Part shown: positions 2,051 through 50,821 of the stretch, piece by piece | Numbering within the stretch: the stretch's first letter is position 1 | Layout of the letters: the number at the start of each line of letters is the position of its first letter | Assembly: GCA_022820805.1 (NCBI GenBank) | Contig: JAJEEV010000043.1 | Span: forward strand, 11,363-75,362 | Source: Acidimicrobiia bacterium | GTDB lineage: Bacteria > Actinomycetota > Acidimicrobiia > Acidimicrobiales > Aldehydirespiratoraceae | Reading direction: 5' to 3' | Length of the DNA: 64,000 nt | Notes under the pieces: generated by a model | What the model was told of the DNA's origin: nothing | Databases searched by the model: none | Seen by the model: only the letters and a program-made list of their open reading frames with translations | Program-made: the position numbers and the translations under genes

Positions 2051-3051
2051 GAACGCGCCCGGCCGTTCTTGCGGGTCCGGCCCGCCAGGAACCCGGCACC
2101 CCATCCGAGGTGCATCACCGCGAAGGCAGCGGCTGCCCTGGCCCGGTCGAGCCGGTCCGGCAGGGCGCCACGCAGCCTGCAGGCCGCGGTCGCGCACGCG
2201 GCCGCGTACACGACGGGGAGGGCGGCCGCCTGCCAGCGGCGGGCTGCCAGCCCGATCAGCGAGACCGCCAGACCGGCGACCAGTGCCGGGGGCGTGAGCT
2301 GCCTAAGGCGAAGCGACCGGGGATGGAGCTTCAGCACCGCCCGCTTCCAGGACCCGTAGGCGAAGTACTGCCGGGCGAGGCCGGCCAGGTCCGGGCGGGG
2401 CATGTAGTCGACCACGAGTGCCGGGTCGAGCCACACGATGTGACCCTGCTCGCGCAGGCGCCAGTTGAGCTCGTAGTCCTGGTTGCGATCCAGCGTCTCG
2501 TCGAAGCCGCCGACCCCCTCGAGCGCGGCGCGGTCGAACACGCCGAGGTAGACGGTGTCGGCCGGGCCCTGGAGCGAGCCGCGCCGGAACGCGGCGGGAC
2601 CGCCGCCGAAGGGCGAGGCCATCGCGGCCGCGATCGCACCCGGCCAGCGGCCGGAGGCCGCCGGCCGCTGGACGCCGCCCACGTTGGCCGCGCCGGTCCG
2701 GGCCATGGTGGCCACCGCCCGCTCGATGTAGTCGGGCGGAAGGCGAGACTGGGCGTCCACCCTGGCCACGACAGGTCCGTCCGAGGCCGCCACCGCGATG
2801 TTCAGGCCCGCGGGCGTGGTCCCGGCGGGGTTAGCCACCGTGCGGACCGGAACGTCGATCGAGGTCGCGGCCAGGAGTCGCTCCGTGCCGTCGGCGCTGG
2901 GTGCGACCGCCACGGTCACGTCGATGGGGCCGCGGTAGGTCTGGGACGCGATGGCGGCGAGGCATCCGGCGATCACCTCAGCGCAGTCGCGGGCCGGCAC
3001 GACCACAGACACCCGGGGAAGGCCGGGATCCGCCGCCGGGCCCGGGCTCAT
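2023..3051 (-). CDS. family 2 glycosyltransferase with C-terminal TM segments
   Basis: C-terminal 342 aa of ORF 2023..3621. Key residues: VSVVVPARD..., DAQ, DYELNWR. Its ATG at 3051 overlaps the upstream stop (ATGA). The 3' end overlaps convergent wzt by 28 nt. Confidence 0.8.
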   Translation of the reverse strand: MSPGPAADPGLPRVSVVVPARDCAEVIAGCLAAIASQTYRGPIDVTVAVAPSADGTERLLAATSIDVPVRTVANPAGTTPAGLNIAVAASDGPVVARVDAQSRLPPDYIERAVATMARTGAANVGGVQRPAASGRWPGAIAAAMASPFGGGPAAFRRGSLQGPADTVYLGVFDRAALEGVGGFDETLDRNQDYELNWRLREQGHIVWLDPALVVDYMPRPDLAGLARQYFAYGSWKRAVLKLHPRSLRLRQLTPPALVAGLAVSLIGLAARRWQAAALPVVYAAACATAACRLRGALPDRLDRARAAAAFAVMHLGWGAGFLAGRTRKNGRARSQQAAVDAR

Positions 3052-4388
3052 ACCCCTGAACGGCGAGCCATCACCAGCAGGCTCTTGACCATGATCTCCC
3101 AGTCGAGCACGGGCGACCAGTTGACGATGTACTGCAGGTCGTGGCCCAACTTGTACGCGGGATCGGTCTGGTAGTGGCCCTGCGTCTGGGCCAGCCCCGT
3201 GAGTCCCGGCGGGATGTCGTGGCGCCGGCCGTACCCGGCGATCTCCTGCTCGTGCCGGGCTACCAGTTCCGGTCGCTCCGGCCGGGGACCGACCAGCGAC
3301 ATGGTGCCGGTGAGCACGTTCCAGAGTTGCGGGAGCTCGTCCAGCCGGGTGCGCCTCAACCAGGCCACGCCGGCGATCACCCGCGGGTCGTCGCGCACCG
3401 CCAGTTCCGGGCCGGCCCGTTCGGCGTCCGGGCCCATGGTCCGGAACTTCACCGCCGTGAACGTGCGGCCGGCGTGCCCCACTCGCTGCTGGCGGTAGAG
3501 GACGCCGCGCCCGGCCCGCACGCGGACATACGCCGCCACCGCGAGGCTCAAGGGCACCGCGACGGGCGCGAGCACCAGCAGGTACAGCAAGTCCATCAGG
3601 CGTTTGAACCGTAGGCGGCACACCGGCAGGGCGTGCGCTCTGAGCGCCACGAACGGCATGCCGCCGATCTGGCGGGTCCGTTGCAGCCCCAGCAGGGTGT
3701 CGGAGGGGGTGATGCGCCGGTAGACGCCCACTCGCCGGCTCTCCAACTCCCCGAGAGGCTCGGGGTACAGGTAGTCCAACGGCTGGCCGGACAGCAGCAG
3801 CAGGTCGGTGGCACCGGTCCGGTCTATCTCGGCAACGATGTCCGACGGGGCGTGGGACTGCCCGACGATGCTCGCCGCGGGCTCCGATTCGTGCAGGTGG
3901 CGGAGGGCCGACTCGACGTCGCGGGGCTCTCCCAGCAGCAGCACCCGGGGCTGGCCGCAGCGGCGATGCCTGACCCTGCGGGCCAGCCAGCGGTTGAAGG
4001 ACACCAGCAGACTGGCCAGGCCGGCCAGGACGACGAGGTTGGCGCGCGGCATCAGGTAGCGCCCGGTCAGCAGCGTGACGGTGGCGTCGGCTCCAACGGC
4101 CAGCAGGGTGAGCAGCGTCGCCCGGGGCAGCCAGGGCGGCCGGCCCAGGCGCTGCTCGTACTCGTACATCCCGCCGAAGTAGTAGATGGCCATGTGCAGC
4201 CCGGTCGCGATGGCGAAGCCCACCGCATAGTGCGACACGGGGTAGGTGGGCCAGTCGAAGCCGAACCTGACCGTGGTGATGGCCGCCATGAGCCCGAAGA
4301 GGGTGACGGCGTCGATGATGTGGAGATAGCGGAAGCCCAGCCTGCGCAGGATTGGGGTGTTGCCTGCTGCTCCGGCCGCGGTCCTCAC
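3048..4388 (-). CDS. polyprenyl-phosphate sugar phosphotransferase (WbaP/exopolysaccharide initiating enzyme family)
   Basis: C-terminal 446 aa of ORF 3048..6371. It has 4-5 N-terminal TM segments, then KRLMDLLY..., FKFRTM-like AVKFRTM, DELPQLWNVLTGTMSLVGPRP. The proposed GTG at 4388 overlaps the upstream stop (GTGA). Confidence 0.85.
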   Translation of the reverse strand: MRTAAGAAGNTPILRRLGFRYLHIIDAVTLFGLMAAITTVRFGFDWPTYPVSHYAVGFAIATGLHMAIYYFGGMYEYEQRLGRPPWLPRATLLTLLAVGADATVTLLTGRYLMPRANLVVLAGLASLLVSFNRWLARRVRHRRCGQPRVLLLGEPRDVESALRHLHESEPAASIVGQSHAPSDIVAEIDRTGATDLLLLSGQPLDYLYPEPLGELESRRVGVYRRITPSDTLLGLQRTRQIGGMPFVALRAHALPVCRLRFKRLMDLLYLLVLAPVAVPLSLAVAAYVRVRAGRGVLYRQQRVGHAGRTFTAVKFRTMGPDAERAGPELAVRDDPRVIAGVAWLRRTRLDELPQLWNVLTGTMSLVGPRPERPELVARHEQEIAGYGRRHDIPPGLTGLAQTQGHYQTDPAYKLGHDLQYIVNWSPVLDWEIMVKSLLVMARRSGV

Positions 4389-24542: not shown

Positions 24543-24648
24543 CGGCCACGGCAGCTAGCTACACGCTGGCAAGCAGGTTCCACTAGAATACATTTAACAA
24601 TAATGTAAATGCTTGACAGATGTCATACCCCTATGGGGTGCTGTCGTC

Positions 24649-26133
24649 ATGTTGATTGAAGCCGCCCGCCGGGCCGAGGCCGCCGCCAAGGAGATGCTGG
24701 CGCTGGTGAATGCCGGGGACGCTTCGTGCGAGGAGATGCGCGAGATGTTGCCGGTTTCCAAGGCCATTGTCGCGATCACGTCGGCCGCGCAGACCTCAGC
24801 CGCGGCGAACATCGCAGCCCGGGACCGTCACGGCGACGGGGGCGCGGAGGTGCTGGCCTCAGGTGCGGGACTGTCGCGGCAGGATGCCCGCAGCCAGGTC
24901 AGGACCGCTGAGGCGCTGCGTGACACGCCCAGGCTGCGCGACGCGGTGGAATCGGGGCGGGTATCTGTGGCGAACGCGAGGCGGCTTGGGGAGGCTGTGT
25001 CGAAGACCAGCGCGGCCGATGTCGCTGATGATCGGGACCTGTTGGCCAAGGCCGAGTCGATGCGGCCCGAGCAGTTCACCAAGGAGGCCCGCCGCTGGAT
25101 GGTGGATCGTCAGGGTGACGGCGGCGAGGGCGAGCATGCCCGTCAACGGGCTCGGCGGTGTGTGCGGATGTGGAACGCCGACGACGGGATGGTGCACCTG
25201 CGCGGGGAATTCGACGCAGTCACCGGCGAGCGCATCCGCAACCGGCTGCGCATCGAGGCCGGCCGCATGCACGACGGCGACAGGAAGCACGCCGCCGCTA
25301 ACGGCAGCGGGCACCAGCGGCGCAGCTTCGACCAGTGCATGGCCGACGCCCTCGAACACCTCACCACCAACCGCTCCGACAGCCAGGGGACCAAGCCCTT
25401 TGCTGATATCTGTGTGGTCGCGCACGTCGATGAAGACACCGGCAAGTTGGTCGCTGAGCTTCCCGACGGGGCACGGCTGCCCCAGTCGGTGCTCGAGGAA
25501 CTGGCCTGCAACGCAAAGTTCACCGGCATCATCTATGACCGCCGGGGCCGGCCGATATGGCGGGCCCAGAGTGTGCGCCGCGCCACCGACGCCCAGCGCC
25601 AGCTGCTGATCGCCCGCGACGGGGGATGCTTCGCCTGCGGCGCCCACCCCGACATCTGCGACGCCCATCACGTGAAGCCCGTGTCCGAGGGCGGGGCCAC
25701 CAGCATCGACAACATGGTGCTGGCCTGCTGGAGCTGCCACCACAAGATCCACTACCTCCGCTGGCAGATCCACGGCCCGCCCGGCAAGCGCACACTGCAC
25801 CCGCCCCAGGCGGAGACCTACGGCCCCGCCCACGCCCCCGAAGGGCCGAGCCTGTTCTGCTCAGAAGCGCCCGCCGTACGCGACCAGGCCGGGCTGCTAG
25901 AGCCCGTCGCGGCCCAGTCCCCGAACACGCTGGTACTTCGCATTCCGAAGGCAACCCGCGCCCCCGATCACTCGCCGGCGAACAGATCCCGACAACGCGG
26001 CGCACGGCCGGCGCAGCACAGCGATCCGCCGGGGAGACCCAGTCCGGCGACCGCCCGGGCGGCGCTGGTGAGATCGCACACCAGGTCGGCCGGCACACCG
26101 GGCGCCCTCAGCGGTGACCGTGGGCCGCCGTGA
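24649..26133 (+). CDS. DUF222-type HNH endonuclease (13E12-repeat-like protein)
   Basis: Within ORF 24613..26133. It has the N-terminal DUF222-like region and the C-terminal HNH box CFACGAHPDICDAHHVKPVSEGGATSIDNMVLACWSCHHKIH. An AT-rich patch precedes it. The low-complexity tail makes the true stop uncertain. Confidence 0.8.
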   Translation: MLIEAARRAEAAAKEMLALVNAGDASCEEMREMLPVSKAIVAITSAAQTSAAANIAARDRHGDGGAEVLASGAGLSRQDARSQVRTAEALRDTPRLRDAVESGRVSVANARRLGEAVSKTSAADVADDRDLLAKAESMRPEQFTKEARRWMVDRQGDGGEGEHARQRARRCVRMWNADDGMVHLRGEFDAVTGERIRNRLRIEAGRMHDGDRKHAAANGSGHQRRSFDQCMADALEHLTTNRSDSQGTKPFADICVVAHVDEDTGKLVAELPDGARLPQSVLEELACNAKFTGIIYDRRGRPIWRAQSVRRATDAQRQLLIARDGGCFACGAHPDICDAHHVKPVSEGGATSIDNMVLACWSCHHKIHYLRWQIHGPPGKRTLHPPQAETYGPAHAPEGPSLFCSEAPAVRDQAGLLEPVAAQSPNTLVLRIPKATRAPDHSPANRSRQRGARPAQHSDPPGRPSPATARAALVRSHTRSAGTPGALSGDRGPP

Positions 26134-26167: not shown

Positions 26168-26872
26168 TTAGCGGAAGAGGTCGTCGGTGGGGGAGCGGAC
26201 TATCTCCTCGGCGACGGAGCCGGTGCGGAACCAGGACTCGTCGAGGCCCCGCACGACTGCGACGGGGACGCCCTTGGCCTTGCCCATGACCAGGTCGGCG
26301 GCTGCCGCGATCTCGTCGGCCACGGCCACCTCGGTCACCTTGAGCTCCCGGCCTAGGGCGTCGGTGCTGCCCCGCAGGTCCACCACTGCGGCGATGCCTG
26401 CGCAGCCGATGGCGGTGTCGGTCACGCCGCGGCGCCACGGCCGGCCGAAGGTGTCGGAGACCACCACCGCCACCTCGACCCCGACCAGCGCCCGGATCCG
26501 GTCTCGGATGCGGCGGGCCGAACGGTCCGAGTCCACCGGCAGCAGAGCGGCGTAGCCCTCCTCGACGTTGCTGAGATCGACGCCGGCGTTGGCGCACACG
26601 AAGCCGTGGGCCGTCTCGGAGATCACCAGGTCTCCCCGCCGGCGCAGCACCCGGACCGACTCCTCCTCCACCAGCGGCTTGTGACTGGTCGGGTCGGCAG
26701 GGTCGACGGCCGCGAGCCGCCCCTCGGCCTTGGACACCACCTTCTGGGTGACCACCACACAGTCCCGGTCACGCAGCGAGCCGGGCCCGGCCGCGGCGAC
26801 GATGAGCGCGCCCAGGTCGTCTCCGGGCCGCACCTCGCCGATGCCCTCAACTCCAAGGATCTCCAGGTTCAT
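26168..26872 (-). CDS. cofE: coenzyme F420-0:L-glutamate ligase (stand-alone CofE, no FbiB-type C-terminal nitroreductase domain)
   Basis: ORF 26168..26872. Key residues: VVTQKVVSKAEGR, ANAGVDLSN, SDTFGRPWRRG. Confidence 0.88.
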   Translation of the reverse strand: MNLEILGVEGIGEVRPGDDLGALIVAAAGPGSLRDRDCVVVTQKVVSKAEGRLAAVDPADPTSHKPLVEEESVRVLRRRGDLVISETAHGFVCANAGVDLSNVEEGYAALLPVDSDRSARRIRDRIRALVGVEVAVVVSDTFGRPWRRGVTDTAIGCAGIAAVVDLRGSTDALGRELKVTEVAVADEIAAAADLVMGKAKGVPVAVVRGLDESWFRTGSVAEEIVRSPTDDLFR

Positions 26873-26906
26873 GGGCTCTCCAGGCTCATGGGATCTCGAG
26901 GCTCAT
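26856..26906 (-). repeat. 17-nt tandem repeat x3 of the cofE start region, forming two 6-codon mini-ORFs
   Basis: The minus strand reads ATGAGCCTCGAGATCCC / ATGAGCCTGGAGAGCCC / ATGAACCTGGAGATCCT. Each ATG overlaps the previous TGA. Confidence 0.9.
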
Positions 26907-27832
26907 GACGACACCGCGGCCACGGTGCGGCGGGCCAGCTCGGCCGCGGCCTGCGGCGAGGACATGATCGTGGGAGCCACCACGGGCCGCACCCCGGCGT
27001 CGGCCACCGCCGCGGCCAGGCCGGCGTCGGCCTCGTCGATCACCAGGGCGGCCACCAGGTCCCGGTAGCGGCGGGCCACCCCCACCACGCTGGCCTCCTC
27101 GCCCAGCTCGCGGAGCATCCGGTCGGCGGGACCCTTGAGGGCGGCGCCCGCCACGATGGGCGACACGGCCACGTTGCGCTCCCGCCGGGAGCCGAGGGCG
27201 TCGGCCACTCCGCCGACGGCCAGGATCGGGCCTATGGACACGACCGGGTTCGACGGAGCGATCACCAAGACGTCGGCGTCGGCGATGGCGTCCGTGACGC
27301 CCGGGGCGGGCACGGCGTCCTCGGCTCCGGCGAAACGCACCCCGGAGATGGCGACGTCGTGGCTGAGTCGCACGAAGTACTCCTGGAAGCCGATCTCGGT
27401 GCCCGAGGCCAGCGTGACCCGGGTCTCGATCGGCTGGTCGCTGGCGGGCAGGACCCGGCAGCGCAGGCCGCGGGCCGCCGCCAGCCGGGCGGTCACCTCG
27501 CTGAGAGGGTGCCCCTGGCGCAGCAGCGTGGTGCGGAACAGGTGGGTCCCGATGTCGCGGTCCCCGAGGTTGAACCAGGCGTCGATCCCCAGCGCCCTCA
27601 GCTCGTCGAGCGCATTCCAGGTCTCGTCGGCCAGGCCCCAGCCCCGCCCAGGGTCGATGGCGCCCGACAGCGTGTAGACGACGGTGTCGATGTCGGGGCT
27701 GACGTGCAGGCCGTGCAGCTCGATGTCGTCGGCCACGTTCACCACCGCGGCGACCTCACCGGGGGGCGTCACCTGGAGCTGCCCGGCCAGGTAGCGGGCC
27801 GCGCCCACACCCCCGGCCAGGACTGTTATCAC
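26903..27832 (-). CDS. cofD: 2-phospho-L-lactate (or EPPG) transferase, F420 biosynthesis
   Basis: ORF 26903..27832. Key residues: ITVLAGGVGAAR..., PSNPVVSIGPIL. Confidence 0.9.
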   Translation of the reverse strand: MITVLAGGVGAARYLAGQLQVTPPGEVAAVVNVADDIELHGLHVSPDIDTVVYTLSGAIDPGRGWGLADETWNALDELRALGIDAWFNLGDRDIGTHLFRTTLLRQGHPLSEVTARLAAARGLRCRVLPASDQPIETRVTLASGTEIGFQEYFVRLSHDVAISGVRFAGAEDAVPAPGVTDAIADADVLVIAPSNPVVSIGPILAVGGVADALGSRRERNVAVSPIVAGAALKGPADRMLRELGEEASVVGVARRYRDLVAALVIDEADAGLAAAVADAGVRPVVAPTIMSSPQAAAELARRTVAAVSS

Positions 27833-27851: not shown

Positions 27852-29799
<1,948 letters not shown>

Positions 29800-49600: not shown

Positions 49601-50821
49601 ATGAGCTGTGCTGGGAATGCGACCGATGGAAGGCGGAAGCGAGGCAGGGGGGCAGGCTTGGCGTTGTCGGTTCTTGTGCTGATGGCGCTCCTGGCTGCCG
49701 CGTGCGGCGGTGACGACGATGACAGCAGCGCCCCTCAGCCTGCAGTCGCGGAGCCTGCCGTCGCGGAGCCGGAGGCTGAGGAGCCTGCCGCTGAGGAGCC
49801 TGCGGTCGAAGAGCCGGAGGCTGAGGAGCCTGCGGTCGCGGAGCCTGCCGTCGCGGAGCCGGAGGCTGAGGAGCCTGCCGCTGAGGAGCCTGCGGTCGAG
49901 GAGCCGGCCGAGCTCACCGAGGTCAACTACCAACTCGGCTGGTTGGCCGACAACGGTGTCCTCGGCGAGGTCGTCGCCAAGAGGATGGGCTGGTACGGGG
50001 AAGAGGGGATCGAGCTCAAGATCGATCCCGGTGGTCCGAGCATCGACGGGGTCGCACAGGTGGCCTCCGGGCGGGCAACGATCGGTCAGCTGTCCTCGAG
50101 TCCGTCGGCGATGCTGGCCGTCTCCCAGGGCATTCCCCTCCAGGTGTTCGCGGTCGGAACCCCCGAGCACCCGTACGCCTTCTTCGCCAAGGGTGACACG
50201 CCGCTTGATTCGCCCGACGACATGCGCGGCCTGGTCGTCGGCGTCCAAGCCACGGGCGTGATACTGGTCGAAGCCCTGCTCGCGGCCAACGACATGACCC
50301 GCGACGACCTGGGAAGCCTGGAGACCGTTGGCGGCGACATCACGCCTCTGCTGACGGACCAGGTCGACGTGTTCACCGGCTGGGTCACCAATGTGGGCCA
50401 ACTGAGCCAGGTGCCTGATCGCAACACTCTGCGGCTGTGGGACGCCGGCGTGCCGCTCTACGCACACATCTACTACGCGTCCACCGACACCATCGCGAAC
50501 AATCCTGAGATCCTGGAAGGCTGGCTCCGTGCCACCGCCCGGGGATGGGCGTTCGCGGCGGCCAACCCCGAGGAGGCGGTGCAGTTGCTGATCGACGAGT
50601 ACCCGGACTTGGAGTTCGACTCCCAGCTGGCCGGGGCTCAGATCCTTCTGGGAATCAAGGAGAACGCCGGTGTCGACGCGCTGGGCGGCTTCGGCTGGTT
50701 CGACCTCGACGTCTGGCAGTCGCAGATCGACCGGTGGGATGCCCTGGGCCAGTTCGACGCCGAGGCTCCGGCACTCGAGGATGTGGTCACGACCGCGATC
50801 CTCGAGGCCGCAAGCTCCTAG
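49601..50821 (+). CDS. ABC transporter substrate-binding lipoprotein, NMT1/THI5-like (NitT/TauT family)
   Basis: Within ORF 49532..50821. It has a lipobox LLAAACGG and an acidic repeat linker, then VNYQLGWLADNG...GIELKIDPGGP, typical of the sulfonate/nitrate/HMP-type SBP fold. Confidence 0.8.
   Translation: MSCAGNATDGRRKRGRGAGLALSVLVLMALLAAACGGDDDDSSAPQPAVAEPAVAEPEAEEPAAEEPAVEEPEAEEPAVAEPAVAEPEAEEPAAEEPAVEEPAELTEVNYQLGWLADNGVLGEVVAKRMGWYGEEGIELKIDPGGPSIDGVAQVASGRATIGQLSSSPSAMLAVSQGIPLQVFAVGTPEHPYAFFAKGDTPLDSPDDMRGLVVGVQATGVILVEALLAANDMTRDDLGSLETVGGDITPLLTDQVDVFTGWVTNVGQLSQVPDRNTLRLWDAGVPLYAHIYYASTDTIANNPEILEGWLRATARGWAFAAANPEEAVQLLIDEYPDLEFDSQLAGAQILLGIKENAGVDALGGFGWFDLDVWQSQIDRWDALGQFDAEAPALEDVVTTAILEAASS
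49739..49906 (+). repeat. 90-bp tandem repeat (about 1.9 units) encoding the PAVAEPAVAEPEAEEPAAEEPAVEEPEAEE linker
   Basis: The unit starts at 49739 and again at 49829, with only a few substitutions. Confidence 0.85.

Follow-up and report, generated by a model that had tools for sequence, protein, structure and literature searches.

A hypervariable tandem repeat at the cofD/cofE junction in a genus of Acidimicrobiia probably keeps cofE coupled to cofD through relay mini-ORFs

How might a gene keep its ribosome supply if the junction that delivers it is duplicated again and again? The window (the whole 64-kb stretch of DNA analysed here) raises this question between the genes cofD and cofE, where a tandem repeat places two very small open reading frames between the end of the one gene and the start of the other. 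The initial annotation described it as a triplicated 17-nt start region and offered two readings: that the 5' end of cofE was recently duplicated in tandem, or that the units form a termination-reinitiation ladder by which the CofD:CofE ratio is tuned. The three 17-nt units can be read directly from the minus strand at 26856-26906, where gtcgtc is followed by ATGAGCCTCGAGATCCC, ATGAGCCTGGAGAGCCC and ATGAACCTGGAGATCCT (26906 to 26856), and TRF reports a repeat at 26857-26907 with a period of 17, 3.0 copies, 88% matches and a score of 81. The features are as follows, with their sources in brackets.

26903..27832, minus strand: cofD, 2-phospho-L-lactate transferase, 309 aa (ORF list, TIGR01819, PF01933)
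26890..26906, minus strand: repeat unit 1, ATGAGCCTCGAGATCCC (sequence, TRF, relay trace)
26906-26904, minus strand: ATG of unit 1, overlapping the cofD stop as ATGA (relay trace)
26886..26906, minus strand: mini-ORF 1, MSLEIP, with its TGA at 26888-26886 overlapping ATG 26889 (relay trace)
26873..26889, minus strand: repeat unit 2, ATGAGCCTGGAGAGCCC (sequence, TRF)
26869..26889, minus strand: mini-ORF 2, MSLESP, with its TGA at 26871-26869 overlapping the cofE ATG 26872 (relay trace)
26878..26881, minus strand: Shine-Dalgarno-like GGAG in unit 2, at -9 to -6 of the cofE ATG, with a 5-nt spacer (sequence)
26856..26872, minus strand: repeat unit 3, ATGAACCTGGAGATCCT, the genuine cofE 5' end (sequence, TRF, N termini of homologues)
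26168..26872, minus strand: cofE, F420-0:gamma-glutamyl ligase, 234 aa, starting MNLEIL (ORF list, TIGR01916, PF01996)

The stop codon of cofD is TGA 26905-26903. ATGA occurs at 26906-26903, 26889-26886 and 26872-26869, giving at each site the -4 overlap of a termination-reinitiation pair, and our relay-tracing script follows the path from the cofD stop through MSLEIP and MSLESP to cofE with a 4-nt overlap at every link. The triplication and the series of overlaps were thus described correctly throughout in the initial annotation, as judged by the sequence, TRF, the ORF list and the relay-tracing script.

Both flanking genes belong to the expected families. CofD scores 316.5 bits against TIGR01819 (cut-off 257.45, NCBIfam) and CofE 257.4 bits against TIGR01916 (cut-off 180.65, NCBIfam), and the two also match PF01933 and PF01996, respectively. 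Of the 449 positions of the FbiB-type model NF009810, CofE covers 12-243 only, indicating a stand-alone protein without the fused FbiB C-terminal domain, and the close CofE homologues listed have similar lengths. These close homologues are all 234 aa long and begin with M[S/T/N]LEIL at the position matching ATG 26872, and the TIGR01916 alignment on CofE starts at residue 3. The true start of cofE is ATG 26872, which is where annotation should place it, and the mini-ORFs should not be annotated as genes.

An error of sequencing or assembly, which the initial annotation had named among the findings that would undo its reading, can be ruled out. The identical 51 nt are present in the Logan assemblies of SRR16351690 (L081) and SRR16351691 (L082), which are independent of each other, the array is shorter than one sequencing read, and comparable arrays are found in long-read circular MAG chromosomes of relatives. 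The array is also far from what base composition would produce: dinucleotide shuffling of the window yields 0.02 expected arrays with a score of at least 81 per window. A search with the 17-mer allowing up to 3 mismatches found 4 sites in the 64-kb window against 0.24 expected; three of the four are the array itself and the fourth, a 3-mismatch match, is in line with chance.

To see how the junction looks elsewhere, we traced it in 180 fetched loci that encode CofE relatives, defining the close, genus-level clade by a CofE at least 88% identical to that of the window. The nearest MAGs carry the labels Acidimicrobiaceae or Ca. Aldehydirespirator, and the window belongs to Acidimicrobiia; names of samples and MAGs alone suggest sponge, coral and marine sources for the relatives. 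A direct NTGA overlap of cofD and cofE is present in 105 of the 162 Acidimicrobiia loci, which points to the direct -4 overlap as the ancestral and dominant state of this junction. Within the genus-level clade, the junction differs in nearly every lineage, and the following alleles were resolved.

No extra unit: L001, L172, L178
17 nt, one unit (mini-ORF MSLESP): L177
17 nt, two extra units: the window, L081, L082
17 nt plus a 104-nt segment: L164
18 + 74 nt, merged into a single 31-codon ORF: L174, L175
35 nt, two units: L083
38 nt, one unit: L003, L004, L170, L171
38 nt, two units: L167, L169, L179, L180
38 nt, five units: L005 (order A-B-A-B-A), L166
38 nt, six units: L165, L168
77 nt, one unit: L173
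Two ORFs of 239 and 233 nt joined by GTGA: L163 (472 nt in total)

The array of the window thus appears, by comparison of these sequences, as one allele of cofD/cofE in a genus of marine or host-associated, Ca. Aldehydirespirator-like Acidimicrobiia. Whether the repeat number varies among relatives had been proposed as a check, and it does, with 0, 1 or 2 extra units of 17 nt and 1 to 6 units of 38 nt. The units of the relatives consist of the first x nt of cofE joined to the last y nt of cofD, with x and y varying between them. Such joined parts with varying ends are the product of tandem duplications across the junction, and the duplication origin proposed in the initial annotation is borne out by them. 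One further close locus, L176, has a run of N within a repeat of at least 340 nt at this junction, where its short-read scaffold is broken.

Two kinds of segment at this junction stand out. The 104-nt segment of L164 (1397-1500) has a lower GC content and an inverted repeat, CAGAAATCTGTA...TACAGATTTG; it forms a 35-codon relay ORF between the 17-nt unit and cofE, its 3' end is a copy of the cofD tail, and its core has no match in the other fetched loci (180 loci). In the distant Acidimicrobiia L069 (3838-3999, labelled Microthrixaceae), L113 and L077, units of 81-87 nt with hairpins (GTTCCGGG...CCCAGAAC) sit at the cofD/cofE ATGA, in two tandem copies in L069, with the relay kept. The core of the L069 unit has no match in any other of the 180 loci. 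From their sequence, these hairpin units may be MIRU-like elements.

The copy number of the array changes faster than the sequence of cofE. L165, L166 and L168 have 0 differences across 650 nt of cofE and carry different arrays, namely six identical units in L165, five units plus a 40-nt duplication in the cofD tail in L166, and four units plus two variant units in L168; L166 and L168 come from one and the same sample. Likewise, L169 has two units and L170 one, with 3 differences across 650 nt of cofE. The array behaves like a VNTR. Among the close relatives (88 kb), 13 of the 20 strong tandem arrays lie at the cofD/cofE junction, as against 4 of 92 among the distant relatives (853 kb). A genome-wide excess of tandem duplication as the cause was rejected, since off-junction arrays are about equally dense in both groups (7 in 88 kb and 88 in 853 kb). 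Arrays that are concentrated at the junction in close relatives and of ordinary density elsewhere indicate a hotspot specific to this lineage and this locus.

The age that the initial annotation gave to the duplication did not fare as well as its origin, and "recent" is not well supported for the window. Its units differ from one another at 2-3 of 17 positions, and both extra units retain AGC, the ancestral Ser codon (nearly all relatives have MSLEIL), whereas the real cofE has AAC. The CTCGAG variant of unit 1 also occurs in the lineages of L177 and L083. This picture contrasts with the six identical units of L165.

Related events occur next to this junction. At the GMD-cofD junction of L001 (approximately 3047-3080), a 17-nt tandem duplication, GTGATAGGCGCGGGCCG next to GTGATAACG, creates the 6-codon ORF MIGAGR*, which joins the GMD stop to the cofD start through two GTGA overlaps. 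The GMD-cofD gap of L173 was considered as another relay and rejected: its ORF stops 5 nt before the cofD ATG, with neither duplication nor overlap. In L166 (1214-1291; ENA ERZ25766727, a 4.19-Mb circular contig at 92x), a 40-nt tandem duplication (1 mod 3) shifts the frame at the 3' end of cofD, and the new frame runs on to the TGA of the second ladder unit, where it stops; coupling would thus be retained. A ladder of 2-mod-3 units should, from its sequence, offer a TGA together with a start in all three frames.

What the diverse alleles share is an unbroken chain of stops and starts. The chain from cofD to cofE is intact in 24 of the 24 close relative loci traced, a count that excludes L176 because of its N run, and L081 and L082, which carry the window's own array, have it too. 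A -1 overlap (TAGTG) in L174/175 is the sole link that is not a -4 overlap. The segment lengths of 17, 35, 38, 74+18, 77, 104, 233 and 239 nt are all 2 mod 3, so that the ORF from each copied start terminates on the TGA inside the next start. As a null model, we replaced the spacers by random sequence that matched the local composition and ranged in length from L-1 to L+1; a chain then arises with a probability of 0.25-0.34 per event, and of 0.09 for L163. The joint null probability over eight alleles is 1.8e-5, which is only approximate because the alleles are not fully independent events. The 35-nt unit begins with exactly the 17-nt unit, and the shorter one could have been derived from it or from a 38-nt unit by a deletion of 3n nt; a deletion linking the 17- and 35-nt units would itself need to be a multiple of 3 in length. 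Units of 38 nt are 37-90% identical across lineages, compared with approximately 90% for cofE, yet their length and the GTGA are retained, indicating that the constraint acts on frame and stop/start and not on the peptide.

The chain is not a universal property of the junction. No clean chain spans the 36-nt spacer of L002, whose CofE is 83% identical, and the chain is missing from 30 of the 162 distant loci, indicating that coupling at cofD/cofE is not universal. NTGA-linked ORF chains are also fairly common by chance in GC-rich DNA, and our scan of stop-to-stop ORFs in the window was noisy. The ladder interpretation of the initial annotation gains from the chain being intact in every resolved allele of the genus despite unrelated unit lengths and sequences, and this support is indirect.

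We propose that the array is a locally derived, hypervariable minisatellite on the NTGA overlap, selected to keep cofE translationally coupled through relay mini-ORFs, a reading to which we give a probability of roughly two in three. A tandem duplication over the junction takes in the end of cofD, the NTGA and the beginning of cofE, as the joined gene ends in the relatives illustrate, and the arrays afterwards grow, shrink and decay. Alleles persist only if every segment is 2 mod 3 in length and contains no in-frame stop, the filter visible in the comparison with random spacers. cofE would be translated by ribosomes passed on from cofD; the lack of GGAG or GAGG in single-copy relatives and the ancestral -4 overlap suggest that it probably depends on them. 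In the window, ribosomes terminating at UGA 26905-26903 would restart at AUG 26906 and translate MSLEIP, restart again at AUG 26889 for MSLESP and a third time at AUG 26872 for CofE, all hops being at the optimal -4 spacing. The efficiency of coupling is best at -4 to +3 nt and mostly gone past approximately 30-40 nt (PMC12548453, Brown & Wade 2025), and coupling was strict in 13 of 14 overlapping gene pairs assayed (PMC6728339, Huber et al. 2019). If a spacer of 34-470 nt were left untranslated, cofE would lose its coupling, which a chain of -4-linked ORFs would preserve. The mini-ORFs would act as ribosome relays whose peptides are immaterial. Chain-breaking alleles would be purged, and copy-number changes that keep the chain would drift nearly freely; as such changes never break the chain, they would be nearly neutral, which would account for the hypervariability. 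An effect on the CofD:CofE ratio, if any, is possible as a secondary consequence.

The extra units bring one feature that could alter the last hop. The GGAG of unit 2 arose through the duplication, and we found no GGAG or GAGG 5' of cofE in single-copy relatives. With an assumed canonical anti-Shine-Dalgarno tail, the predicted duplex has -6.4 kcal/mol, and that of a single-unit construct made in silico has -3.0; the cofE start is also predicted to be more accessible, at 0.41 (window) against 0.22 (single unit). Together with this GGAG, the higher predicted accessibility means that the extra units could, on balance, raise or lower CofE output. Similarly, in the units of L165 and in unit A of L005, the GGTG of the native cofD end has become GGAG, placed 5 nt ahead of the following GTG. 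A general model in which duplication makes a Shine-Dalgarno motif was rejected, as L177, L083 and L179 are without GGAG. RNA structure as a functional element was rejected as well, because the 151-nt junction folds no better than its shuffles (z = -0.19).

The same variability could be read as adaptive, the locus being a translational rheostat or of contingency type, in which selection on the number and the variants of the units sets the CofE:CofD ratio. A constant share of the ribosomes would get across each hop, or a hop would bring in a Shine-Dalgarno motif, and the ratio would determine a strain-specific length of the F420 oligoglutamate tail. The confinement of the hotspot to this junction and this genus fits such selection, as do copy numbers that vary between strains with identical flanks, even within one sample, and the GGAG gained 5 nt before the next start in the L165 units, L005 unit A and window unit 2. 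However, the gain is not general, given the three loci without it, the alleles, with between 0 and 6 units and as much as 470 nt, show no obvious tree pattern, and near-neutral drift of a chain-preserving VNTR is the simpler account of the same data; we regard selection for the ratio as doubtful. An extended version strikes us as unlikely: a heritable rheostat setting ribosome flow to cofE and the F420 tail length, in which a ladder of at least three units would also be a frame-independent catcher that rescues coupling, as in L166.

The array might instead be tolerated junk without coupling, with cofE initiating independently and 2-mod-3 units surviving through the harm done by the other classes. 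This explanation predicts nearly the same filter as the one observed: periods that are multiples of 3 would extend the CofE N terminus, and 1-mod-3 periods would lead to out-of-frame translation over the cofE start. The GGAG of unit 2 and the predicted rise in accessibility could support de novo initiation, and the overlapping pairs menDH and bioBF of E. coli have substantial or full de novo initiation (PMC6728339). Nonetheless, the long spacers of L163 (472 nt, null 0.09), L164 and L174 keep an internal chain that would be needless if cofE were independent, single-copy relatives have no Shine-Dalgarno motif 5' of cofE, and the ancestral state is mostly the direct -4 overlap, which together make independent initiation decidedly improbable. 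Insertion of a mobile interspersed repeat of true MIRU type is, with a sequencing or assembly artefact, very improbable. The hairpin units of L069, L113 and L077 look element-like, and the L164 segment has a lower GC content and an inverted repeat. However, the unit of the window is the cofE 5' end and has no copy elsewhere in the 64-kb window or off-junction in the fetched loci, the 38-mer is absent from the window, and the cores of the L164 segment and the L069 unit occur in no other of the 180 loci. The searches with the 17-mer, the 38-mer and the cores, over 64 kb and 180 loci, led us to reject an interspersed-element origin for the window array, and the identical arrays in independent assemblies, together with the long-read circular chromosomes, exclude an artefact.

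The closest known counterpart of the chain-preserving minisatellite is the mycobacterial MIRU-VNTR. MIRUs are a dispersed family with a common consensus at dozens of loci, thought to be mobile, and at senX3-regX3 the units measure 77 and 53 bp, each of them 2 mod 3. According to later papers (PMC12548453 and PMC3635867), the original description by Supply et al. 1997 concerned the intergenic region of senX3-regX3; the MIRU ORFs join neighbouring genes by a -4 nt stop/start overlap that preserves downstream translation (PMC12548453), and their copy number is polymorphic between strains. Like MIRU-VNTRs, the cofD/cofE arrays are tandem units of polymorphic copy number between co-directional operon genes, with unit ORFs that overlap their neighbours at -4 nt in all resolved close loci. 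Unlike MIRUs, the units are not interspersed in the 64-kb window and the 180 loci, because they are built from local gene ends, their lengths vary by lineage from 17 to approximately 240 nt, and the host belongs to Acidimicrobiia and not to Mycobacterium. This comparison is one of organisation, the units being visibly local copies of the cofE and cofD ends. To our knowledge, a 17-nt unit with a 6-codon ORF is far below any MIRU in size, and the known cases of termination-reinitiation are single hops between two real genes. The links themselves resemble the known ATGA/GTGA termination-reinitiation coupling (PMC6728339, PMC12548453), all being canonical -4 overlaps except for one -1 overlap. The difference is that 1-6 mini-ORFs without a conserved peptide would serve as serial hops here, in a coupling that we infer from the sequence. 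Short leader ORFs that deliver ribosomes downstream are known as coupled uORFs and from engineered short-ORF designs (PMC12548453). The mini-ORFs share with them the sole role of passing the ribosome to an overlapping downstream start, whereas leader ORFs are single and have their own ribosome-binding site, and the cofD/cofE ORFs are chained, fed by the upstream gene and variable in number. Contingency loci switch a reading frame on or off when the repeat number changes. The cofD/cofE array shares with them a hypermutable repeat where translation starts and copy numbers that differ between strains, but it contains no on/off switch, since every observed copy number leaves cofD and cofE intact and linked. 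Our literature search found nothing relevant on locally derived junction duplications of this type.

The junction amounts to a natural allelic series for serial termination-reinitiation, with 0-6 hops, ORFs of 6-80 codons and unrelated units at one and the same position. The mechanism of termination-reinitiation is debated with respect to 30S or 70S scanning, the efficiency per hop and the role of the Shine-Dalgarno sequence. A chain-preserving solution of the MIRU style is apparently possible by local duplication without a mobile element, which bears on the origins of MIRU-like repeats. The locus could also be used as a high-resolution VNTR strain marker for uncultured Acidimicrobiia that, from names only, are apparently sponge- or coral-associated, and short-read assemblies can break at such arrays, as in L176.

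Other repeats and gene changes were observed around the locus and in its relatives. A perfect in-frame tandem duplication of 18 nt (1.9 copies) at 28856-28890 on the minus strand of the window, also found in L081, lies in the C-terminal tail of an epimerase/dehydratase-family gene (28837-29799), directly before its stop and the start of GDP-mannose dehydratase. L176 has a 55-nt tandem duplication of 2.8 copies (2179-2334) across the cofE stop codon (PPADDLFR*). On the plus strand of the window at 24613-26133, a gene for a DUF222 + HNH endonuclease is convergent to cofE; it is also found in L163, L164, L173, L176 and L179, and an epimerase gene takes its place in L165-L168 and L177, indicating that the region 3' of cofE is variable too. 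Two Ca. Aldehydirespirator chromosomes have large 36-nt tandem arrays, with a 3n period, 5' of GMD/cofD (L005, 1041-1849, 22.5 copies; L004, 1884-2006, 3.4 copies). Finally, the window contains a large nested tandem array at 49737-49910 with periods of 15, 30, 45 and 90 nt and scores up to 328; as these periods are all 3n, it presumably encodes an in-frame acidic or proline-rich protein repeat.
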